Positions 6,341 to 31,633 of a DNA stretch of 44,917 bases are shown here, one piece after another. Source of the stretch: an uncultured Eubacteriales bacterium (GTDB taxonomy: Bacteria; Bacillota; Clostridia; Christensenellales; CAG-138); contig CADAQS010000003.1 in NCBI GenBank assembly GCA_902790115.1, positions 1 to 44,917 of the forward strand, written 5' to 3'. The stretch's first letter is position 1, and each line of letters begins with the position of its first letter. Below the pieces are notes generated by a model. The model was not told the origin of the DNA and did not search any database. It saw only the letters and a program-made list of their open reading frames with translations. Both the position numbers and the translations under genes were made by a program.

Positions 6341-7018
6341 TCACAGCGGCGACTTCGACGGCGTTCCGGCCTTGCGCGGATAGGTCTTCGGAGTTGGTGC
6401 GTTTTTGGTGCAGATCACCAGAGAACGTACGCCGTAATCCGCTGGGACCGTGACGGTTTCCGCGCTTGCATGCAGCAGGAACAACGCGCTCTTTGCACTT
6501 TCGAGCTCCTGCGACGCCTCGCCCTTAAAGCAGATGCTCTTGCCACCGACCTTCAGCAGCGGAACGGTCAGTTCGAGCAGCACCGGCAACGCGGCAACCG
6601 CGCGCGACACCGCGAAATCATAGGTGCCGCGGTGTGCCGGCATCCGTCCGAAATCCTCGGCGCGCGCATGAACACAGGCCGCAGTCAGGCCGAGTTCGCG
6701 CAGCACGGTCTCCAAAAAACCGATCCGCTTCTGCAGCGAATCGACAAGCGTCAGCCTTAGGTCCGGCCGCCGGATCAAAAGCGGGATTCCCGGAAAGCCC
6801 GCGCCGGTGCCGACGTCCACGACCTTTGCGCCGTCCGAAAGCAGCGGCAGTGCGGCAAGCGAGTCGGCAAAGTGCTTTTTGACCACTTCCTCGGGCGCGG
6901 TGATCGCGGTCAGATTCATGCGCGTGTTCCAGTCGATCAGCAGGTCATAATATGCGACAAATTTGTCGCACTCTTGCTCGCTCAGATGCGGGATCGCGCG
7001 TTTCAGCAGTTCACGCAT
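6341..7018 (-). CDS. rsmG: 16S rRNA (guanine527-N7)-methyltransferase
   Basis: Starts MRELLKRAIPHLSEQE. SAM motif VDVGTGAGFPGIPL. GAGG lies 8 nt upstream of ATG 7018 (alternative start 7039). Overlaps the mnmG stop. Confidence 0.9.
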   Translation of the reverse strand: MRELLKRAIPHLSEQECDKFVAYYDLLIDWNTRMNLTAITAPEEVVKKHFADSLAALPLLSDGAKVVDVGTGAGFPGIPLLIRRPDLRLTLVDSLQKRIGFLETVLRELGLTAACVHARAEDFGRMPAHRGTYDFAVSRAVAALPVLLELTVPLLKVGGKSICFKGEASQELESAKSALFLLHASAETVTVPADYGVRSLVICTKNAPTPKTYPRKAGTPSKSPL

Positions 7019-8882
7019 GGGAAAAACCTCGCTTTGCATAGATCAGAAGGACGCTGACGTCTGCGGGCGATACGCCGGAGATGCGCGACGCCTGCCCGAC
7101 CGAGGCGGGCTTGTGGGCGTTCAGTTTCTGCCGGGCTTCGAGGCGCAGACCGTCCAGTTTGGTGTAATCGAGATCGGGCGGCAGCGCCGTGTTCTCCAGC
7201 GCCCTTTCCCGCTCGACCTGCGTCTTTTGCTTTTCGATATAGCCGTCGTAGTGCGCGAGAACCTCGACCTGTTCCTCCACGTTCGGCGCAAGCGGTTCCA
7301 ACGCGTCGAACAGGCGTAAAAGGTCGGCGTAGCGCACCTTCGGCCGCTTCAGCAGGTCGAACAGCACGGCGCCGTTTTGCGGGACCGGCTCGCCGATCGA
7401 TTCCAGATAGACGCGCAGCACGTCGGACGGCGGCACGTGCGTCCCGAGCTTTTGCAGGGCGGCGGCGATGCCGTTCTTTTTGGCCAGCAGCATGGCGTAG
7501 CGCTGCTCGCTGATCAAACCGAGCCGTCTTGCGCGTTCGGTCAGGCGCAGGTCGGCGTTGTCCTGCCGCAGCAGCAGCCGGTATTCACAGCGGCTTGTCA
7601 TCATGCGGTACGGTTCCGGCGTGCCCTTGGTGGAAAGGTCGTCGACCAGAACGCCGAGATAAGCGTCGCTGCGTCCGAGATAAAACGGTTCCTCGCCCTT
7701 GACGTACAGCGCGGCGTTGATGCCGGCGAACAGACCCTGCGCTGCGGCCTCCTCGTAGCCGCTCGAGCCGTTGACCTGTCCCGCGGTGAACAGACCGGGA
7801 ACATCGCGCACCATGAAGCGCAGGTCGAGCGCGGTCGGGTCGAGGCAGTCGTATTCGATCGCATAGCCGAGCCGCATGACCTCGCAGCGGCGCAGGCCGG
7901 GCAGCGAGTGCAGCATGTCGATCTGCACGTCGGCAGGAAGCGACGTCGAAAAGCCCTGCACGTACATCTCCTCGGTGCTGCGGCCTTCCGGCTCGATGAA
8001 GATCTGGTGGCGGTCCTTGTCGGCAAACCTGACGACCTTGTCCTCGATCGACGGGCAGTAGCGCGTGCCGGTCGCGTGGATCTTGCCGCTGTACATCGGC
8101 GAGCGGTGCAGGTTCGCGCGGATGATTTCGTGCGTCGTTTCGTTCGTATAGGTCAGATAGCAGGGATCCTGCTTTACGCGCAGTCCGTCCGGATGCAGGA
8201 AGGAGAAGGCGGGCGTCGGCTCGTCGCCGAGCTGAATCTCCATCTCCGAAAGATCGAGCGTGCTTTTTTTGACGCGCGCGGGCGTTCCGGTTTTGAAGCG
8301 CTGCAGCGGAATGCCGAGTTCGCGCAGCGCGTCGCCGAGCCGTTCGCTGCGGAGCATGCCGTTCGGTCCGGACAGGCGCGACCATTCGCCGATCAGAATG
8401 CGCGATTTCATGTACACGCCGGCGCAGAGCACCGCGGCGCGGCACGGATAGCGGAAGCCTTCGTCGGTCAGTACGGCGCTGACGCAGCCGTTGTGCGTTT
8501 CGATCCGGTCGGCTTCCCCCTGCAGAACGACAAGGTTTTCCTGCCGCTCAATCGCGCTTTTGACGCGCTCGTGGTAGCGGCGTTTATCCATCTGCGCGCG
8601 GAGCGAATGGACAGCCGGTCCTTTGCCGGTGTTCAGCATCCGCATCTGGATCAGCGTATCGTCGGCAGCAAGGCCCATTTCGCCGCCGAGCGCGTCGATC
8701 TCGCGCACCAGATGACCTTTGCCGGTTCCGCCGATCGCCGGATTGCACGGCATCATGCCGATGCTGTCCAGGTTCAGGGTCAGAAGCAGCGTGTTCAGTC
8801 CCATGCGCGCGCAGGCGAGGGACGCTTCCACGCCGGCATGACCGGCGCCGATGATGACGATGTCAAAAGCTCTGTCTTGCAT
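7011..8882 (-). CDS. mnmG: tRNA uridine 5-carboxymethylaminomethyl modification enzyme
   Basis: Starts MQDRAFDIVIIGAGHAGVEA (FAD fold); full-length GidA-like sequence; RBS GGAGGA before ATG 8882. Confidence 0.95.
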   Translation of the reverse strand: MQDRAFDIVIIGAGHAGVEASLACARMGLNTLLLTLNLDSIGMMPCNPAIGGTGKGHLVREIDALGGEMGLAADDTLIQMRMLNTGKGPAVHSLRAQMDKRRYHERVKSAIERQENLVVLQGEADRIETHNGCVSAVLTDEGFRYPCRAAVLCAGVYMKSRILIGEWSRLSGPNGMLRSERLGDALRELGIPLQRFKTGTPARVKKSTLDLSEMEIQLGDEPTPAFSFLHPDGLRVKQDPCYLTYTNETTHEIIRANLHRSPMYSGKIHATGTRYCPSIEDKVVRFADKDRHQIFIEPEGRSTEEMYVQGFSTSLPADVQIDMLHSLPGLRRCEVMRLGYAIEYDCLDPTALDLRFMVRDVPGLFTAGQVNGSSGYEEAAAQGLFAGINAALYVKGEEPFYLGRSDAYLGVLVDDLSTKGTPEPYRMMTSRCEYRLLLRQDNADLRLTERARRLGLISEQRYAMLLAKKNGIAAALQKLGTHVPPSDVLRVYLESIGEPVPQNGAVLFDLLKRPKVRYADLLRLFDALEPLAPNVEEQVEVLAHYDGYIEKQKTQVERERALENTALPPDLDYTKLDGLRLEARQKLNAHKPASVGQASRISGVSPADVSVLLIYAKRGFSHA

Positions 8883-8904
8883 GGTTTCCTCCGAATTCTC
8901 AAAA

Positions 8905-8933
8905 AGTATAGCATATTTGCTGATTTTACACAA
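8905..8933 (-). promoter_or_regulatory. Candidate mnmG-rsmG promoter
   Basis: Minus strand: TTGTGT, 17-nt spacer, TGc-TATACT. Confidence 0.5.
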
Positions 8934-9025
8934 TGCGCTGTGGAAAAATGTTTGTCAGGATGCTATAATCGGATTATCAAAGCGGATCTGTCCGGCGCAC
9001 GGGCGGGTCGGGACGGAGGAGCGGA

Positions 9026-13963: not shown

Positions 13964-14743
13964 ATGGCGAAATACCGCGTTTTGCTGGCAGACGACAACA
14001 GCCGGTTTACCGATCTGATGAAAGGATTTCTGCTTGCGCAGGAGAACATTGCGGAAGTCGATACGGCTTCCGACGGTAAGGAGGCTCTGCAGCTGCTGAA
14101 GGAAAAGCGTTACGACGTGCTGACGCTTGACCTGATCATGCCGAACGTGGACGGGCTGTCCGTGCTGGAGCAGTTGTCGGCGGTCTGCGGCGCGGAGGCG
14201 CCCGCCGTCGTGATCCTGTCGGAGCTTAGGAATGAGGCAATGGTGCGCCGCTGCTGCGCGATGGGCGCACGGTACTATATGGTCAAGCCGATCGAGCCGG
14301 AAACGCTGTACAAGCGGCTCGTGCAGATGCTCGAAGCCGATCAGCCCAAGGGCGGCATCCTGTCCTATACGCAGTCGCCCAAGTCGTTCGACGAAAAGGT
14401 TACGGCGATCTTCCTTGTCGCCGGTATCCCGGCGCACATCAAAGGTTATCATTACCTGCGCGAAGGGATCCGCATGGTGTACGAGGAGCCAGGCCTGATC
14501 AACCGGATCACCAAGGAGCTGTACCCGGGTATCGCAAAACGCTTCGGCACCTCGGCGAGCAAGGTCGAGCGCGCGATCCGTCACGCGATTGAAGTCGCCT
14601 GGACGCGCGGCAAGATCGAAAACCTGAACGGCCTTTTCGGCTACAACATCTACGGCAAGAACGATAAGCCCACCAACGGCGAATTCATCGCGCTCGTCGC
14701 GGACAAGCTCTTAATGGAGGAGCAGAGCCGAAAGGCGGTGTAA
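13964..14743 (+). CDS. spo0A: Sporulation master response regulator Spo0A
   Basis: Receiver domain (LLADDN, LDLIMP) and the Spo0A-specific C-terminus (GIPAHIKGYHYLREGI, ITKELYPGIAKRFGTSASKVERAIRHAIEVAW). RBS AAAAGGAGG. Confidence 0.95.
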   Translation: MAKYRVLLADDNSRFTDLMKGFLLAQENIAEVDTASDGKEALQLLKEKRYDVLTLDLIMPNVDGLSVLEQLSAVCGAEAPAVVILSELRNEAMVRRCCAMGARYYMVKPIEPETLYKRLVQMLEADQPKGGILSYTQSPKSFDEKVTAIFLVAGIPAHIKGYHYLREGIRMVYEEPGLINRITKELYPGIAKRFGTSASKVERAIRHAIEVAWTRGKIENLNGLFGYNIYGKNDKPTNGEFIALVADKLLMEEQSRKAV

Positions 14744-14919
14744 CAGCAAGAAGACCGGCCATAGCGCCGTTTTCATACAGCTTGCAGGAGAAGCCCCGTC
14801 TCCTTGCAGGAATGCCCCAACCTCATAATCCGTGGAAAGTCGCCGCGTGAAATACCGTGCAGGGATCACGCAGCGGCTTTTCACGTTTTGGAAAAGGTGT
14901 TTTATAATCCGGCTTGTAA

Positions 14920-15456
14920 ACAAAGATCAAAACCGATATAATAAAGCATAGACAACCAAAAGAAGGAAATTATCTTTTACTTCCATTAACGTCAAGTGAA
15001 AGACGCAGATACGTTCCTATTGGTTATCTTCCATATACTGTAATTGCAAACAATTCAGTTCAACTAATACCAAATGCAACTTTGTATGACTTTGGGATAG
15101 TAACATCTAATGTATTTATGTCTTGGATGCGAACTGTTTGTGGAAGATTGAAAAGTGATTTTCGTATTACAGTAACTAACGTCTACAATAATTTTCCTTG
15201 GCCGACACCGACCGACGCACAACGGGCAAAGATTGAACAGACCGCGCAAGGCATTTTGGACGCGCGTGCGCTCTATCCGGATTGTTCGCTTGCCGATCTC
15301 TATGATGAAACGACGATGCCGCCGGAACTGCGAACCGCTCACCAAAACAACGACCGCGCTGTTATGGAAGCATACGGCTTCTGGGGCAAGCTGAATTCGG
15401 AAAGCGCGTGTGTTGCGGAACTTATGAAGATGTATCAACAGCTAACGGCACAATAA
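14920..15456 (+). pseudogene. 3'-terminal remnant of an MmeI-family (type IIL/IIG) restriction-modification enzyme or DNA methyltransferase
   Basis: In-frame translation ..NYLLLPLTSSERRRYVPIGYL..NATLYDFGIVTSNVFMSWMRTVCGRLKSDFRITVTNVYNNFPWPTP..DARALYPDCSLADLYDETTMPPELRTAHQNNDRAV matches the conserved C-terminal region of this roughly 900-aa family as I recall it. Only about 180 codons are present and the upstream frame is closed by TAA at 14917. GC is visibly lower than in the flanks. Confidence 0.75.
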
Positions 15457-15468
15457 GAAAGAGATAGG

Positions 15469-15502
15469 GCAAGAGGCTTCACGCCTCCTGCTCTTTTCGT
15501 TT
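15469..15502 (+). terminator. Intrinsic terminator after the R-M remnant
   Basis: GCAAGAGGC / GCCTCCTGC stem (one mismatch), loop TTCAC, then TCTTTTCGTTT. Confidence 0.6.
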
Positions 15503-15550: not shown

Positions 15551-15658
15551 TTATCCACAGGACAAAGTGGACATTTCGGAAGTTGTCCACCGAAAAATTC
15601 CCCAAAAATTCATAAAGCTGTGGATAAATGTGGATAACTTTGTGGACGAAGTGGAAAA
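15551..15658. promoter_or_regulatory. DnaA-box cluster: 3 perfect and 4 degenerate 9-mers
   Basis: Perfect boxes: TTATCCACA 15551-15559; TGTGGATAA 15619-15627 and 15629-15637. Two mismatches: TTGTCCACC 15583-15591, TGTGGACGA 15641-15649, AGTGGAAAA 15650-15658. Three mismatches: AGTGGACAT 15566-15574. Confidence 0.75.
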
Positions 15659-15723
15659 AAGCGCTTTCTATATAGATATACAGAAAACCGGATAGGCGGG
15701 CGGATCGGACGGGAAACGGCGGG

Positions 15724-16725
15724 TCAGAAGCTGCGGCAGATCGCGTAAAACAGCGCGCTGCGCTCGTCGCGTTCGCCGGATTTGACGAGCGCGTTGACCT
15801 CGGCAAACGCCGCAACGGCCTGTTTCAGCGACGCGGCGGACTGCTTCTGCGCGTTCTTCAGCGTGATCTCGGCGGCGGCGGGACTTCCGCCCATGCGGGA
15901 GAGGATCTCCGCGCGCGAACGCTTGCGGTCGAGCATTTCCCGCGCGATCAGCATCTGCCGGAGGCGTCCTTCCAAAAACGATGCGGTGCCGATCGGCGAT
16001 TCCTTGCCCGCGTTGAGCACGGATTCGAGCATCCGGAGCGCCGCTTTCTTGTTTCCGGCGAGCAGGCAGTCGAGCATTATGAACGCTTTGTACTCTGAAG
16101 ACGGCGTAACGGCGGTTTCGAGCACGTCTTTTGTGATCGTGCCGCCGTTTCCGACGTAGCCGGATGCTTTGCTGAGCTCGTTTCGCAGACGGTACGCGTC
16201 GGTGCCGACCATGTCGATCAGGACGCGCGCGGTCCGGTCGTCCAGAACGGCGCCCCGCAGGGCGGCTTCGCGCATGCAGAACTTGGCGGCGCGGTCGGGC
16301 GTCAGCGCGTCGAAGCGAACCGTCCGGTCGCGCGCGGTAAACAGCTTGGTGAAGTTGGTCTCCTTGGCGTCGCCGCGGCGTATAAACAGCACGATCGCGT
16401 CGGGCAGCGCGAAAAAGCGATCGATCGCGTCCGGCGCATGCCTGGTTTCGGCGTTGAGAGCGTCGTAAAGATCCGCGTCGCTCCAGTCGGTTACGACGAC
16501 GATGTGATAGGCGTCAAAAAACGGAAGCTGCCCTGCGGCGACCAGAATGTCGCGCAGCGAAGGCCCTTTCAGCCGGTGCAGATTCATTTCCGAAAAGGCG
16601 GGGTCGAGGGTCGCCAAAATCCGGTCCGCCGCCTCCTGCTTGGTGAGCTCCTCGCTCCCGAGCAAAAGGTAGGGGCCGCGCAGCGTTCTTGCGTTGGTTT
16701 CCCGGAAAAGCGCCTGTTCGTTCAT
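15724..16725 (-). CDS. holA: DNA polymerase III delta subunit
   Basis: Starts MNEQALFRETNARTLRGPYLLLGSEELTKQ; 333 aa with HolA-like organisation. The upstream 47 codons of the track ORF are rejected (TTG start, no support). Confidence 0.85.
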   Translation of the reverse strand: MNEQALFRETNARTLRGPYLLLGSEELTKQEAADRILATLDPAFSEMNLHRLKGPSLRDILVAAGQLPFFDAYHIVVVTDWSDADLYDALNAETRHAPDAIDRFFALPDAIVLFIRRGDAKETNFTKLFTARDRTVRFDALTPDRAAKFCMREAALRGAVLDDRTARVLIDMVGTDAYRLRNELSKASGYVGNGGTITKDVLETAVTPSSEYKAFIMLDCLLAGNKKAALRMLESVLNAGKESPIGTASFLEGRLRQMLIAREMLDRKRSRAEILSRMGGSPAAAEITLKNAQKQSAASLKQAVAAFAEVNALVKSGERDERSALFYAICRSF

Positions 16726-16731
16726 GCCGCT

Positions 16732-16760
16732 ATTGTACCACGGAACCGGCAAAAACACAA
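16732..16760 (-). promoter_or_regulatory. Candidate holA promoter abutting the start codon
   Basis: Minus strand: TTGTGT, 17-nt spacer, TGg-TACAAT, then 6 nt (AGCGGC) and ATG. No Shine-Dalgarno sequence. Confidence 0.45.
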
Positions 16761-16860
16761 CGGCGCGCGCCGAAAAAAGTCCGGAGACAAAAACGGTGCA
16801 CAGGTGCGGGGAAGGCACCGGAAAAAGGCGGAAAAAAGCCCGGAAAATCTGAAAAAATGC

Positions 16861-16956: not shown

Positions 16957-17244
16957 ATGAATCAGTACGAAGTTTTGTACGTGATCACGCCCGAATTGGA
17001 AGAGGAAGCAAATCAGTCCGTTCAGGAGAAGTTTGCGAACATCATCACCGATAACGGCGGCGAGATCGAAAAAACGGATGTATGGGGCAAGCGTCGCTTG
17101 GCTTACGCAATCGACTACAAGACCGAGGGTTTCTACGTTCTCGTGAACTTCTCCGCGAACCCGGAACTCCCGCGCGAACTCGAGCGTAATCTGAGAAACG
17201 ATGAGCGCATCATGCGTTACATGGTTACTCGTAAGGAAGCATAA
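16957..17244 (+). CDS. rpsF: 30S ribosomal protein S6
   Basis: Starts MNQYEVLYVITPELEEE..WGKRRLAY. RBS AAGGAGGTG. Confidence 0.95.
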   Translation: MNQYEVLYVITPELEEEANQSVQEKFANIITDNGGEIEKTDVWGKRRLAYAIDYKTEGFYVLVNFSANPELPRELERNLRNDERIMRYMVTRKEA

Positions 17245-17283
17245 TCAACCAAATCGGCACGAAAGAATGGGAGGAACGATAGA

Positions 17284-17712
17284 ATGAATAAGATTACGTT
17301 GATTGGAAACCTGACACACGATCCGGAAACGCGCACCACGCCGAACGGCGTGACCGTATGCACGTTCACGATCGCCGTAAACCGCAGATTTGCTTCGCAG
17401 GGCGGCGAGCGGCAGACCGACTTTTTCCGCATCAATGCCTGGCGTCAGCTGGGCGACACCTGCGCAAGATACCTTGCAAAGGGACGTAAGGTTGCGGTCA
17501 TCGGCGAGCTGCAGGCGCGCATGTATGAAGCGAAAGACGGAACGTCACGGATGTCGCTCGACGTTTCGGCCGACGAAGTCGAATTCCTGAGCCCGCGCGG
17601 TGACGACAGCGGCAACAGCAGCAGCGGTTATTCCGCGCCGCGTCCGCAGAACAACAATGCGCAGGATCTTGCCGGCTTCACCGACATCAACGCCGACGAA
17701 TTACCTTTCTAA
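17284..17712 (+). CDS. ssb: Single-stranded DNA-binding protein
   Basis: Starts MNKITLIGNLTHDPETRTTPNGVTVCTFTIAVNR; acidic tail ..DELPF. Confidence 0.95.
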   Translation: MNKITLIGNLTHDPETRTTPNGVTVCTFTIAVNRRFASQGGERQTDFFRINAWRQLGDTCARYLAKGRKVAVIGELQARMYEAKDGTSRMSLDVSADEVEFLSPRGDDSGNSSSGYSAPRPQNNNAQDLAGFTDINADELPF

Positions 17713-17738
17713 GTTAAAATTTACAGGAGGCTTGCACC

Positions 17739-17984
17739 ATGGAAGATCGTAAACAACTGCGTCCCCGCCGTCCGCGGAGCAGACGTAAAGTTTGCCGTTT
17801 CTGCGTTGAAAAGGCCACATCCATCGATTATAAAGACATTCGCAAACTGCAGGGCTTTGTTACCGAATCCGGTAAGATCATGCCCCGCCGCATGTCCGGT
17901 GTGTGTGCCGAGCATCAGCGCGACCTGGCCGTCGCCATCAAGCGCGCACGCGTCATGGCTCTGCTGCCGTATTGCGCAGAATAA
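17739..17984 (+). CDS. rpsR: 30S ribosomal protein S18
   Basis: ..[13 protein letters not shown]...L..F..E.GKI.PRR..G.CA.HQR.L..AIKRAR..ALLPY. Confidence 0.95.
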
Positions 17985-18545: not shown

Positions 18546-19685
18546 ATGGCATTTTCGGGACGATACGGCAACCGGTCGGGCAAGAGCTTTGACGGAAACG
18601 AAACGCGGGGCGAATCGCATGGTTACGGCGAACGTTCCTATGGTAATAAAAAGGACGGACAGCGTTCCTACGGGCAGCGCGACGGACAGGGCAAGAAACC
18701 CTACGGCGGGCGGAAAAACTACGGCGAGCGCGACGGCTATTCCGGAAACGACGGCGAACGCAAATCCTACGGCGAGCGCGACAATTCGGGGAAAAAGTCC
18801 TATGGCGAACGCGACGGATACCAAAGGAATGACGGCGAGCGTAAGCCCTATAACCGCCGCTTTGACGACCGGCAGCGTGAGGCGGCGCCGGCGTATTCGC
18901 AGCGGCAGGAGCCGGTGCAGACGGAGACCGACGAGCAGCCGTACCTGCTGATCGGACGCAACGCCGTGCGCGAGGCGGTTAAGGCGGAACGCAGCATCGA
19001 CCGCATCCTCGTTTCGACCGAGACCGACGGGAGTCTTCGGGAGATTGTGAACCTTGCGCGGGACCGCAAAATCGTGATCCGCGAGGTCGATCGCAAGAAG
19101 CTCGACGAGATCTGCATGCCGTTCGGACACGGCGGCAAGACCGCAAACCATCAGGGCATCGTAGCGTATGCGGCAGGTGTGGAATACTGCTCGGTGCAGG
19201 AGATTCTGGACGTTGCTAAAGCGCGCGGCGAGGAGCCGTTTGTGATCGTGCTCGACGGGATCGAGGATCCGCACAACCTCGGTTCGATCATCCGCAGCGC
19301 GGAGTGCGCGGGCGCACACGGCGTCGTGATCGGCAAGCGCCGCAGCGCGTCGGTGACGGCGGCGGCGGTCAAGGCGGGCGCGGGCGCGACCGAATACATG
19401 AAGATCGCGCGCGTCGTCAACATTCACGGCGCGGTCGAGGAATTGAAAAAAGCCGGCCTGTGGATCGCCGGCGCGGACATGAATGGGCAGCCGATGCACC
19501 GGCAGAACATGAGCGGGGCATTGGCGCTCGTGATCGGCAGCGAGGGCGACGGACTGTCGAAGCTCGTGCGCGAAAGCTGCGATTTCCTCGTTTCGATTCC
19601 GATGCGGGGACATATCGACTCGCTGAACGCGGGCGTTGCGGCGGGCATCCTGATGTTTGAAAAGCGCAGACAGGACGAGGCGTAA
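18546..19685 (+). CDS. rlmB: 23S rRNA (guanosine-2'-O)-methyltransferase RlmB (SpoU/TrmH family) with a ~125-aa repetitive N-terminal extension
   Basis: C-terminal SpoU motifs (LDGIEDPHNLGSIIRSA, LVIGSEGDGLS, IPMRGHIDSLNAGVAAGILMFE). The N-terminus consists of YGERD / KSYG repeats. RBS GGAAGGAG. Confidence 0.88.
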   Translation: MAFSGRYGNRSGKSFDGNETRGESHGYGERSYGNKKDGQRSYGQRDGQGKKPYGGRKNYGERDGYSGNDGERKSYGERDNSGKKSYGERDGYQRNDGERKPYNRRFDDRQREAAPAYSQRQEPVQTETDEQPYLLIGRNAVREAVKAERSIDRILVSTETDGSLREIVNLARDRKIVIREVDRKKLDEICMPFGHGGKTANHQGIVAYAAGVEYCSVQEILDVAKARGEEPFVIVLDGIEDPHNLGSIIRSAECAGAHGVVIGKRRSASVTAAAVKAGAGATEYMKIARVVNIHGAVEELKKAGLWIAGADMNGQPMHRQNMSGALALVIGSEGDGLSKLVRESCDFLVSIPMRGHIDSLNAGVAAGILMFEKRRQDEA

Positions 19686-19688
19686 CCG

Positions 19689-20300
19689 ATGGAAACGCGA
19701 CCGAGCGACGAACAGCTGATCGAGCAGCTGCGGGCAGGCGACGCGGATGCGGAGCGGATGCTGTACGAGCGGTACAAGCAGACGGTCCGTTCGCGCGCGC
19801 ATACCTATTTTCTGATCGGCGCCGACCATGAGGATTTGGTGCAGGAGGGCATGATCGGACTGTACAAGGCGGTCTGCGAATACGATCCCAACAAGGCGGC
19901 GTCGTTCCACAGCTTTGCGGATCTTTGCATCACGCGGCAAATTCTGACCGCGATCAAGCGCGCCACGCGCAAAAAGCACGGGCCGCTGAACACCTATGTT
20001 TCGCTGAATCAGCCGAAGTTTGAGCGCGAGAACGATCAGACGCTGTTCGATACGGTGCAGAACCTGCGGGTCGTCGATCCGGAGGAGCAGCTGATCGGCC
20101 GCGAGGAGTATGACCGCATCCTGTCCTATCTCAAGGAGAATCTGTCCTCGATGGAGCAGACGGTGCTGGGAATGTATCTGAACGGGTTTTCCTACCAGCA
20201 GATCGCCCAAAAGCTCGATCGCACGCCGAAGTCGATCGACAACGCGATTCAGCGCGTCAAACGCAAGCTGGAAACTTTCCGGGAAGCGAATATGTTCTGA
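19689..20300 (+). CDS. sigH: Sporulation sigma factor SigH (Spo0H)
   Basis: ECF-sized sigma-70 protein with SigH-typical sequence (FLIGADHEDLVQEGMIGLYKAVCEYDP.KAASFHSFADLCITRQILTAIK, YQQIAQKLDRTPKSIDNAIQRVKRKL) and synteny after rlmB. Confidence 0.9.
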   Translation: METRPSDEQLIEQLRAGDADAERMLYERYKQTVRSRAHTYFLIGADHEDLVQEGMIGLYKAVCEYDPNKAASFHSFADLCITRQILTAIKRATRKKHGPLNTYVSLNQPKFERENDQTLFDTVQNLRVVDPEEQLIGREEYDRILSYLKENLSSMEQTVLGMYLNGFSYQQIAQKLDRTPKSIDNAIQRVKRKLETFREANMF

Positions 20301-29691: not shown

Positions 29692-30036
29692 TTATGCCTT
29701 TTGATCGCCCTTGCCCGCAAGCTGCAGGCAGTTGTCGATGATGGATTCAACAAGCTGCAGTTCAATCGCGTTCAAAGAGCTCAATTTTACCGCTGTACGG
29801 TTGGTTTCTGCGGGAGCAACATGACCGAGGAGAATATAATCTGCGCTGACCTGCAGGACTTGACAGAGTTTTGCCAGATTTTCCGGACGGATGGCTTTAT
29901 GACCTGTCTCGATATATGAAATTGTTTGGGTCGAGACATTCATCTGCTCGGCAAGCTGTTCTTGGGTCAGTCCAACAGCTTTTCGCCTGTGCGCGATCCG
30001 CGCCCCCATTTCCCAATGAAATTTATTTGTTCCCAT
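29692..30036 (-). CDS. XRE-family helix-turn-helix transcriptional regulator
   Basis: Starts MGTNKFHWEMGARIAHRRKAVGLTQEQLAEQMNVSTQTISYIETG. RBS AAGGTGGTGA. Confidence 0.8.
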   Translation of the reverse strand: MGTNKFHWEMGARIAHRRKAVGLTQEQLAEQMNVSTQTISYIETGHKAIRPENLAKLCQVLQVSADYILLGHVAPAETNRTAVKLSSLNAIELQLVESIIDNCLQLAGKGDQKA

Positions 30037-30094
30037 AGTTTCACCACCTTTATAAAGTATATCAACTATGGTTGTTCCCATACATCAATCATGA

Positions 30095-30123
30095 TTGACA
30101 ATAATAAAAACATGATTTATAAT
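30095..30123 (+). promoter_or_regulatory. Candidate promoter of the zinc-ribbon genes
   Basis: TTGACA, 17-nt spacer, TATAAT, overlapped by CATGATT repeats. Confidence 0.6.
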
Positions 30124-30184
30124 TTTACAGAACCGTTGAGAAATAGGTTTATGAAAACACATCATAGGAAATGGAGGAAACGAA

Positions 30185-30973
30185 ATGAAGTACTGTCCGA
30201 ACTGCGGTTCGCAGGTTGATGATCAGATAAAGTTCTGTACGAATTGCGGAGCTCCTTTACAGGAGAATAATCAACCAACATTTCAACAGCAAACGGAGCC
30301 GGTCGTGGAAAGGATCGTCTATCAACAAGTGCCCGTTCAGCAGAATCAGCCGAAACGCGTTTCGCCCTTGGGAATCGTTGCGTTTGTGCTCTCTTTGACA
30401 TTTATCGGCGCACCGATAGCGGTTGTATTGGCAATCCTTGATTTGGTTCTCAACAAAGATCGAAAACACGGTTTAACGATCGCCGGTTTAGCAATCGGCG
30501 CAGTCTTTTCGTTGTTGCTTGCATCGATCTTATTTGATTCTTCGAAGAAAGAAGCACAGAAAGCGCCGACTACAAGTACGGCACAAGTAGAGCGCTCTGT
30601 CCCCGAAACAAAGCCCGATTCGGAAAGCAGCAGAGAAGTCATTTTAGAAACGGAAAGTCCTACAAAAGCTCCGACGGAAAAGCCGACTTCAAAGCCGAAT
30701 GCAATTTCGGAAAACACCATACGCCCGGAGATAAAAGAGGCGATTGACAGTTATGAAGAGTTTTATGACCAATACGTTGAATTCATGAAAAAACTCGACA
30801 TGTCGGATGCTTCTATGCTGATGGAAAGCGTAAAAATGATGGAGAAGCTTGCCGAGATGGAGAAGAAATGGGACGAGATCAATGAGATGGAACTGACCAC
30901 TGCGGAGACAAAATATCTTCTTGATGCCAGCATACGGATCGAGAAGAAATCACTTGAGCTGATCGATTCTTAA
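30185..30973 (+). CDS. Zinc-ribbon membrane protein (N-terminal zinc ribbon, DUF4190-like TM pair, S/T/P/E linker, helical C-terminal domain)
   Basis: Starts MKYCPNCGSQVDDQIKFCTNCG; TM pair GIVAFVLSLTFIGAPIAVVLAIL / LTIAGLAIGAVFSLLLASILF; RBS GGAGGAAA. Confidence 0.7.
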   Translation: MKYCPNCGSQVDDQIKFCTNCGAPLQENNQPTFQQQTEPVVERIVYQQVPVQQNQPKRVSPLGIVAFVLSLTFIGAPIAVVLAILDLVLNKDRKHGLTIAGLAIGAVFSLLLASILFDSSKKEAQKAPTTSTAQVERSVPETKPDSESSREVILETESPTKAPTEKPTSKPNAISENTIRPEIKEAIDSYEEFYDQYVEFMKKLDMSDASMLMESVKMMEKLAEMEKKWDEINEMELTTAETKYLLDASIRIEKKSLELIDS

Positions 30974-31033
30974 TCAGAAAAACAACAGCAATAAAGCTGA
31001 ACAAGAAACGACAATCACTTTGAAAGGGTAACA

Positions 31034-31633
31034 ATGCTAGTCGTAATGAAGTGTCCGAACTGCAATGCGGATTTACAGATGGAGGAAACGCGAGAGTTTA
31101 TGTTCTGCCAATATTGTGGAACAAAAGTCGTGAACCTGTATCAAAAAGTGCATGTCGTTAATCAATTTCAGGTTGATGCTGCATCATTTCTTCCGCTATT
31201 ACAGATGCAGGGACGATATGAAATTCCGCAGACAGGACTTCTTCTCGGTAAAGTACAGGAATTGAAAAGAACCCGAAACATCGATCAGGCTATTGCCTAT
31301 TGTGATGCAATATTGGTTCTCGATCCGAACAATTACGAAGCGCTCAAAGAACGCAATGCGCTGATGAAGACCATAACAACCCCCAATGTCTTTGTCCGGT
31401 TCATCTCCGTGAATGAAAACGCAGGTTTGCAGACTTCTCTTGACGACCGTCAGATTACAAGATACAAGCTTAATGAGGAAAAACAATTTTTAATGCCTGT
31501 CGGAAAGCATATCCTAAAATTCCGTTCGGGAATTAAGAGATACGCGCGCGAATTTGAAATCTTCGATCGTACATCGGTTGTACACTTTACTTTCGAAGCC
31601 GGTATTTTCAGTAACGCAATTTATTCCGAATAA
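31034..31633 (+). CDS. Zinc-ribbon protein with TPR-like helix pair and beta-rich C-terminal domain
   Basis: CPNCNADL..x13..CQYCGTK, then AIAYCDAILVLDPNNYEALKERNAL. Low-GC codon usage; start could instead be 31046. Confidence 0.6.
   Translation: MLVVMKCPNCNADLQMEETREFMFCQYCGTKVVNLYQKVHVVNQFQVDAASFLPLLQMQGRYEIPQTGLLLGKVQELKRTRNIDQAIAYCDAILVLDPNNYEALKERNALMKTITTPNVFVRFISVNENAGLQTSLDDRQITRYKLNEEKQFLMPVGKHILKFRSGIKRYAREFEIFDRTSVVHFTFEAGIFSNAIYSE

Follow-up and report, generated by a model that had tools for sequence, protein, structure and literature searches.

A predicted extra-origin cluster of DnaA boxes with a fixed geometry in related Clostridia

Results

The cluster occupies a convergent intergenic gap

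The DNA analysed here, referred to throughout as the window, is a stretch of 44,917 nucleotides that corresponds to positions 68-44984 of a 69.2-kb metagenome scaffold, with the contig end 67 bp to its left. Within it, a truncated MmeI-type restriction-modification gene on the forward strand and holA on the reverse strand converge on a gap that carries a dense cluster of DnaA boxes, the first of which lies 66 bp from the end of holA (Table 1). A first-pass annotation of the window had placed the ends of both genes at this gap and described it as promoter-less; our gene boundaries agree, and a scan of both strands found no sigma-70-like promoter in the gap. Across the whole window, Rfam at gathering thresholds returned no match and ARAGORN found no tRNA or tmRNA. 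A contig from a different sample (L064) is identical over 889 bases across the gap, the end of holA and the MmeI remnant.

Of the MmeI-family gene, only the C-terminal domain and the last part of the target-recognition domain survive. Together with three promoter-like sites (14880-14976) this remnant occupies a low-GC stretch, 14744-15456. The stretch, which separates spo0A from the cluster, is a restriction-modification insertion that has decayed, and the remnant lies outside the conserved element described below. A second low-GC patch (29692-31633, 0.43-0.50 against a window mean of 0.59) codes for an HTH regulator, a zinc-ribbon/DUF6591 protein and a 199-aa protein without a Pfam match, and is possibly a small foreign island.

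An AT-rich tract that the earlier annotation had singled out (15665-15687) is indeed present, and its sequence supplies the two arms of an 11-bp stem followed by U6 on the holA strand. Because it folds as a hairpin with a U-run, which is kept in both the minimum-free-energy and the centroid fold, the tract forms a terminator-like structure and no obvious unwinding element. As judged from the fold, the hairpin is probably the intrinsic terminator of holA; it is not conserved in the relatives, and in one of them (L077) GC-rich sequence stands in its place.

Table 1. Features at and around the DnaA-box cluster, in window coordinates. Boxes are numbered from the holA side.
Feature	Position	Strand	Description
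rsmG and mnmG	6341-8933	-	Pfam assignment
spo0A	13964-14743	+	Pfam assignment
MmeI-type restriction-modification gene	15082-15456	+	C-terminal remnant (124 codons); Pfam MmeI_TRD (partial), MmeI_C
Terminator-like hairpin	15469-15491		Bidirectional; between MmeI remnant and cluster
Box 7	15551-15559	+	TTATCCACA, perfect; opposed to boxes 1-4
Box 6	15567-15575	-	ATGTCCACT (+ strand AGTGGACAT), 3 mismatches; weak
Box 5	15583-15591	+	TTGTCCACC, 2 mismatches; opposed to boxes 1-4
A/T-tract spacer	15592-15618	-	27 bp; holds conserved motif ATGAATTTTTGGGG (15600-15613)
Box 4	15619-15627	-	TTATCCACA, perfect; start 10 bp past box 3
Box 3	15629-15637	-	TTATCCACA, perfect; start 12 bp past box 2
Box 2	15641-15649	-	TCGTCCACA (+ strand TGTGGACGA), 2 mismatches; start 9 bp past box 1
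Box 1	15650-15658	-	TTTTCCACT (+ strand AGTGGAAAA), 2 mismatches; first of four tandem boxes
holA hairpin	15655-15688	-	11-bp stem 15678-15688/15663-15673, loop 15674-15677, U6 15655-15660
holA	15724-16818	-	DNA polymerase III delta subunit, 364 aa; Pfam DNA_pol3_delta and DNA_pol3_delta_C
rpsF-ssb-rpsR	about 16957-17984	+	Pfam assignment
SpoU methylase and sigma factor	18546-20300	+	Pfam assignment

The density of DnaA boxes exceeds chance expectation

The cluster spans 108 bp (15551-15658) and comprises three perfect boxes (TTATCCACA, or TGTGGATAA on the complementary strand), three boxes with two mismatches and one with three. All three perfect boxes fall within 87 bp, and the six boxes with at most two mismatches within 108 bp. 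We assessed this density against 300 first-order Markov simulations of the window, which gave a mean of 0.07 perfect boxes per window; in none of the 300 did three perfect boxes occur, and no 110-bp stretch held two or more perfect boxes or six boxes of at most two mismatches. As no simulation reached the observed density, chance is excluded and the clustering is non-random. The window total of one-mismatch boxes, by comparison, is just marginally above the shuffle expectation.

Most of what the first-pass annotation had recorded about the boxes holds. A both-strand search recovered its three perfect boxes, including the tandem pair with starts 10 bp apart (15619 and 15629), and no further perfect box in the 44.9 kb; the GTGGACA/TGTCCAC inverted pair is likewise present as described. 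Of its seven box-like 9-mers in 108 bp, six have at most two mismatches and the seventh (box 6) has three. The statement that only a single one-mismatch box, at 8939, occurs elsewhere was wrong, as there are five (8939, 13610, 34075, 35937 and 42198), which leaves the finding unaffected. The box at 8939-8947 (TTTTCCACA) is a single site in the 92-bp gap that separates mnmG from a divergent HD-domain gene, and lies 6 bp upstream of the mnmG ORF.

Read from box 1 towards box 7, box 7 begins 23 nt past the end of box 5. Boxes 6 and 7 together make a 7-bp inverted repeat followed by a T-run, and a terminator-like hairpin can be drawn there at 15552-15573 on the holA strand.

Homologous clusters share a fixed geometry

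Homologues of the cluster were sought by several routes. A holA-based scan of 185,579 species genomes yielded five loci in metagenome-assembled genomes of rumen or gut Clostridia, among them L004, whose cluster aligns to window positions 15581-15658 with 73% identity (E = 1e-9); L065, L077 and L080 were added through look-ups of holA homologues. Scanning metagenomes with the pattern TCCACANNGTTATCCACANTTNTCCACA returned 57 loci, of which L021 and L061 were the only homologues. Homologous clusters are thus available from six related Clostridia contigs (L077, L080, L004, L065, L021 and L061), and the check that the first-pass annotation had proposed, conservation in related genomes, came out in favour of the cluster.

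All seven copies, that of the window included, are built alike: four tandem boxes, whose starts are 9, 12 and 10 bp apart, come first and are followed by a spacer and one to three opposed boxes. Box 1 reads TTTTCCAC[ATG] (TTTTCCACN) in all seven and is abutted by box 2, and box 5 is opposed in every copy, its other strand reading [GT]GTGGA[ACT]AA. A second opposed box lies 23-24 nt past box 5 in most copies, with L077, L004, L021 and L061 sharing the offset of box 7; box 6 is common to the window, L077 and L080 only. The spacer, which measures 38 bp in the relatives (37 in L080) and 27 bp in the window, contains (T)ATGAATTTTTGG, and its TGAATTT..GG core and T-run are conserved across members. 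Relative to the other copies, the window spacer has an 11-bp deletion, equal to one helical turn, so that helical phase is kept.

Conservation is concentrated on the boxes. Computed over six aligned members, pairwise identity is highest for box 3 (0.96), with 0.92 for box 1, 0.90 for box 2, 0.89 for box 4 and 0.87 for box 5; box 7 (0.74) and box 6 (0.32) are less alike. Because boxes 1-5 (0.87-0.96) are far more identical than the sequence between boxes (0.57) and in the flanks (0.26), we conclude that selection acts on the boxes and their spacing. Inspection by eye revealed no small ORF downstream of the cluster that is conserved between members, and an sda-like peptide gene was accordingly rejected. 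The RNA fold of the gap on the holA strand is no better than that of shuffled sequences (z = -1.17), and a structured RNA was therefore also rejected.

Most of the 57 loci from the metagenome scan are unrelated box clusters, lying upstream of a dnaB-like gene, upstream of apparent tRNA genes, or in oriC-like regions. About 35 loci of aquatic origin (L008, L010, L011, L015, L016, L020, L022-L025, L027-L032, L035-L037 and others; 52-58% GC) have a common GTTTCCACAGRGTTATCCACAGTTATCCACAG, preceded by additional boxes; about 90 nt downstream follows a gene that, judged from its sequence, is DnaB-type helicase-like (MSMLAPV...NLEAEQS), and these boxes are a candidate conserved DnaA-box operator for dnaB, unrelated to the cluster near holA. 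In three other unrelated loci (L006, L018 and L050), about 100 nt 3' of the pattern match, CTACTACTAGTACTACTA and an AT-rich run come after a DnaA box, an arrangement that resembles a true origin unwinding module. The sole phage BLAST match to the gap (49 nt, E = 2e-3) was to a Gokushovirus and was set aside as a run of generic DnaA boxes and no homologue. This rat-gut microvirus (Gokushovirus WZ-2015a, KT264787.1, about 1780-1877; L079 625-722) carries six tandem DnaA boxes, five TGTGGATAA and one TGTGGACAA, in the non-coding gap between VP1 and VP2, which could serve as a DnaA sink or replication aid.

The cluster is probably old, and its neighbours differ between copies

Of the seven copies, five are found downstream of holA, always in one orientation relative to that gene. 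The cluster is found 66-100 bp past the holA stop in the window, L077 and L080, where its far side is taken up by the MmeI remnant, a MatE gene and an M3 peptidase gene, respectively. A GH2 glycosidase gene separates the two in L004, placing the cluster 2.6 kb downstream of holA and ahead of a rubredoxin-like ORF and a pyrophosphatase gene, and four efflux or large-protein genes do so in L065 (6.8 kb), with rubredoxin-pyrophosphatase-DUF5684 beyond. In L021 and L061 the cluster is flanked by two genes, an ATG22-type MFS gene on whose 5' side it lies and an M20 peptidase gene that ends towards it.

In about ten further related contigs the cluster is missing after holA, which is followed instead by a YunG gene, an HSP20 gene or IS elements, so the cluster is either dispensable or able to move within the chromosome. 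The holA tree places the carriers on three distinct branches; this distribution indicates an old element, inherited vertically and repeatedly lost or relocated. Downstream of holA lies an insertion hotspot, which has received IS elements in L067, the efflux genes in L065 and the GH2 gene in L004. The block of holA and rpsF-ssb-rpsR is oriented oppositely to GC skew in the window and in L065 (holA on the C-rich strand in the former and on the G-rich strand in the latter), indicating a local inversion.

In the four copies that do not adjoin holA, direct TTTTTTGAAC(A/G)G repeats spaced by 234-235 bp stand on either side of the cluster (3152 and 3386 in L061; 17707 and 17942 in L065; 9599 in L004; a diverged TTTTTCGAAC near 4106 in L021), and ahead of the downstream one lies a palindrome, A(n)-(G)CGATCG(C)-T(n). 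These repeats could mark a module boundary, terminators or a protein site.

Both spo0A and the MmeI remnant adjoin the cluster only in contigs of the window's own lineage. The proximity of spo0A is hence incidental, and the connection with spo0A and sigH that had been raised for this locus is unsupported; Spo0A '0A' boxes (TGTCGAA) are absent from the window cluster, for which reason regulation by Spo0A was dropped, and a single one occurs in L021 only. Since the relatives carry the cluster and lack the MmeI remnant, the cluster did not arrive with the restriction gene.

Features of a replication origin are absent

On the forward strand, nearly all 1-kb bins have a positive GC skew, and the cumulative skew climbs monotonically across 15.6 kb. 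To separate replication bias from coding bias we used skew at third codon positions (GC3), which on the coding strand is +0.068 for forward genes and -0.151 for reverse genes (+0.151 in forward-strand terms). The forward strand is therefore G-rich at silent sites whichever strand codes, and this bias is alike to the left and right of the cluster, the mnmG-rsmG block included. The homologous cluster of L065 likewise lies inside a 21-kb stretch of uniformly positive skew, so that in both sequences skew has one sign across the cluster and no switch. The rpsF, ssb and rpsR genes (16957-17984) have a negative coding-strand GC3 skew (-0.08 to -0.22), unlike other forward genes, which probably reflects the codon-usage bias of highly expressed genes and not replication orientation.

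Adjacency of oriC to dnaA and dnaN is usual in Firmicutes. Neither the window nor the neighbourhood of any other copy, as far as the contigs extend, has a gene with a DnaA or DnaN domain. The mnmG-rsmG block lies 6.6 kb from the cluster and rpsF-ssb-rpsR 1.3 kb; both gene groups lie near oriC in B. subtilis, which suggests that the cluster may be origin-proximal. Every available contig of the window's locus ends at the same repeat-rich gene. In the basal unwinding system of bacterial origins, at least three DnaA-trios occur within 16 bp of a box and are followed by an AT-rich unwinding region (PMC8287927). Among six aligned members, neither strand in or around the cluster has a run of at least three NTA (3'-NAT-5') trios, and under the looser 3'-NAN-5' rule no run of three was seen by eye in the spacers of the window and L004. 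The AT-rich tract, on the box-1 side, is unique to the window among the copies. We conclude that the cluster is not oriC, given that it has no dnaA gene, no trio run, no conserved AT-rich unwinding tract and skew of one sign. A search of the window for the parS consensus with up to two mismatches found no site.

Comparison with characterised DnaA-box clusters

Clusters of DnaA boxes outside the origin are known regulators of initiation in B. subtilis, E. coli and Streptomyces. Eight stable DnaA-binding regions have been mapped in B. subtilis, six of them outside oriC (Ishikawa 2007, PMC2533591), and deletion of all six such DnaA-box clusters (DBCs) leads to over-initiation, most of which is explained by two (Okumura 2012, PMC3245932). 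Only these two of the six measurably affect initiation, and no structural feature was found that marks the active ones (PMC3245932). DBCs are usually origin-proximal in Firmicutes (PMC2533591, PMC3245932) and in Actinobacteria (PMC3245932).

By analogy, the best reading places our cluster closest to the B. subtilis cluster between gcp and ydiF, DBC[gcp-ydiF], which is located where convergent genes have their 3' ends, shows conservation among Bacillus species, has an unclear role and was judged uncharacteristic for transcriptional regulation by its authors (PMC2533591). The two share a dense arrangement with three top-affinity TTATCCACA boxes, convergent 3' ends, conservation and a position outside oriC. 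They differ in their flanking genes and sequence, which are unrelated; in density, DBC[gcp-ydiF] having eight boxes of at most one mismatch in about 50 bp (A = 0.94) and the window three perfect plus three two-mismatch boxes over 108 bp (A = 0.02); and in that DnaA binding is known from ChIP for the former and predicted from sequence for the latter.

The A value of Ishikawa is affinity-weighted and divided by mean spacing, and a cluster is called where it exceeds 0.3 over four successive boxes with at most one mismatch to TTATNCACA. The window copy scores 0.02, below this cut-off, because only three of its boxes qualify; on those three it scores 0.31, the criterion being an empirical one for B. 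subtilis. Among the homologues, L021 and L061 pass with 0.97 each and L004 is borderline (0.30), with lower values in L077 (0.19), L065 (0.03) and L080 (0.01). Considered more generally, the window cluster has the closely spaced high-affinity boxes of a DBC and lies outside an origin, having neither a skew switch nor dnaA/dnaN; what would be expected of a DnaA operator is absent, as the gap has no promoter-like site and the downstream genes differ between copies.

Other known systems offer partial parallels. The B. subtilis yydA and vpr clusters provide our working model, being extra-origin clusters whose copy number relative to oriC limits initiation; they overlap promoters and have no known defining structural feature (PMC3245932), whereas the family described here is promoter-less and has a fixed tandem-spacer-opposed geometry. 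The head-to-tail boxes about one helical turn apart and the opposed arrays resemble the DnaA-oligomerisation region and basal unwinding system of oriC (PMC8287927), from which the cluster differs by its lack of trios, conserved unwinding element, skew switch and dnaA/dnaN neighbour. The DARS element of E. coli has a core of three boxes (I-III) that promotes release of ADP from DnaA (PMC6868365).

The resemblance to E. coli datA lies in the few high-affinity DnaA boxes outside oriC with an A/T-rich segment between them, and in the predicted role, since datA controls initiation negatively. The two are not homologous in sequence, and datA needs IHF and stimulates hydrolysis of DnaA-ATP; Firmicutes, to our knowledge, have neither IHF nor an Hda system.

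Discussion

On the present evidence the locus is probably an extra-origin, vertically inherited, promoter-less DnaA-box cluster that would bind DnaA without starting replication or operating a promoter. Among the alternatives that the first-pass annotation had listed, the favoured one is thus a titrating cluster similar to datA or the B. subtilis DBCs, given a fixed architecture in six relatives, the lack of a promoter and a position outside any skew switch. Its most likely role, by analogy with those systems, would be to sequester or inactivate DnaA and so restrain re-initiation.

A mechanism that fits the geometry can be outlined. DnaA would bind the perfect boxes 3, 4 and 7 first and then spread cooperatively onto the phased weaker boxes 1, 2 and 5. 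A DnaA oligomer would be seeded by the four head-to-tail boxes, two of them perfect and two weaker, and two to three opposed boxes (one perfect) would face it across an A/T-tract spacer that is probably intrinsically bent. As the spacer changes only by one helical turn (38 to 27 bp), the arrays could be brought together across it into a single stable complex of about 6-7 DnaA molecules, and this nucleoprotein complex may sequester or inactivate DnaA. Given that only two of the six B. subtilis DBCs affect initiation (PMC3245932), binding need not mean titration.

Two readings tie the boxes to the start of replication, on the chromosome itself or on incoming DNA. That the cluster is the origin of the chromosome, or half of a bipartite oriC that has moved away from dnaA, might be entertained from its opposed arrays of high-affinity boxes, which recall the DnaA-oligomerisation region of oriC, from the 23-bp AT-rich tract adjoining box 1, and from the presence in the same window of mnmG-rsmG and rpsF-ssb-rpsR, which are neighbours of oriC in B. 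subtilis. We regard this as very unlikely: neither GC skew nor GC3 skew switches at the cluster in the window or L065, genes converge on the site, no copy has dnaA or dnaN nearby, and the six aligned members have no run of at least three NTA trios. The AT-rich tract is moreover absent from L077, folds as a terminator hairpin, and lies 5' of the TTATCCACA-oriented boxes; the trio run in L006, L018 and L050 is on the 3' side, which we take to be the usual one. That the cluster is instead a relic of the replication origin of foreign DNA, delivered together with the MmeI-type gene, would account for its directly adjoining the truncated gene and a low-GC stretch, and yet is hardly credible when clusters of the same geometry occur in all six relatives with no MmeI remnant nearby and in a syntenic holA/DUF5684 neighbourhood. 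A BLAST search of the gap against 72,556 plasmids and a scan of viral contigs with the three-box pattern gave no match, and no rep gene lies near the cluster.

The remaining readings accept DnaA binding and assign it a different purpose. DnaA is a transcription factor at several B. subtilis DBCs, namely sda, ywlC and yydA (PMC3245932, PMC2533591), and the boxes might similarly form a transcriptional element: bound DnaA could block or attenuate transcription at the holA 3' end, or the boxes could be the operator of a neighbouring gene or of a transcript that is not annotated. The cluster does start at the U-run of the weak holA hairpin, boxes 6 and 7 form a hairpin with a T-run on the holA strand, and the L021 and L061 clusters lie about 130 bp upstream of the ATG22-type MFS transporter gene. 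Against this, the window gap has no sigma-70-like promoter on either strand, neighbours differ among the seven copies, with the L004 and L065 clusters kilobases away from holA, and neither a conserved small ORF nor an RNA structure (by fold z-score or Rfam) was found; we consider a transcriptional role unlikely. Rather improbable, in our view, is that the boxes bind DnaA for chromosome organisation, as an anchor or boundary of the origin domain, or for DARS-like reactivation, and not for titration. Both roles have been raised for B. subtilis DBCs (PMC2533591, PMC3245932), and the strict geometry and conserved spacer motif suggest a specific complex and not a mere sink; sequence does not discriminate these roles from titration, and the window has neither parS nor another known organiser site.

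The extra-origin, titrating cluster that we favour belongs to a known class, and its fixed geometry across genera is the only moderately novel aspect. We know of no extra-origin DnaA-box cluster characterised in Clostridia, nor of a sequence rule that separates functional from incidental clusters. For the prediction of origins in metagenome-assembled genomes the locus is a caution, as box density alone would miscall it as oriC. The family provides seven aligned copies in which box spacing is invariant, the spacer motif is conserved and an indel equals exactly one helical turn, and hence a compact, testable substrate for the assembly of DnaA oligomers outside the origin. We suggest, tentatively and with some doubt, that it may be a dedicated DnaA-regulatory locus of gut and rumen Clostridia, an equivalent of datA (or DARS) in which four tandem boxes are set against two to three opposed boxes across a phased, bent ATGAATTTTTGG spacer. 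If so, its geometry would supply a structural rule separating regulatory DBCs from mere clusters of boxes, of a kind that was not identified in B. subtilis (PMC3245932).
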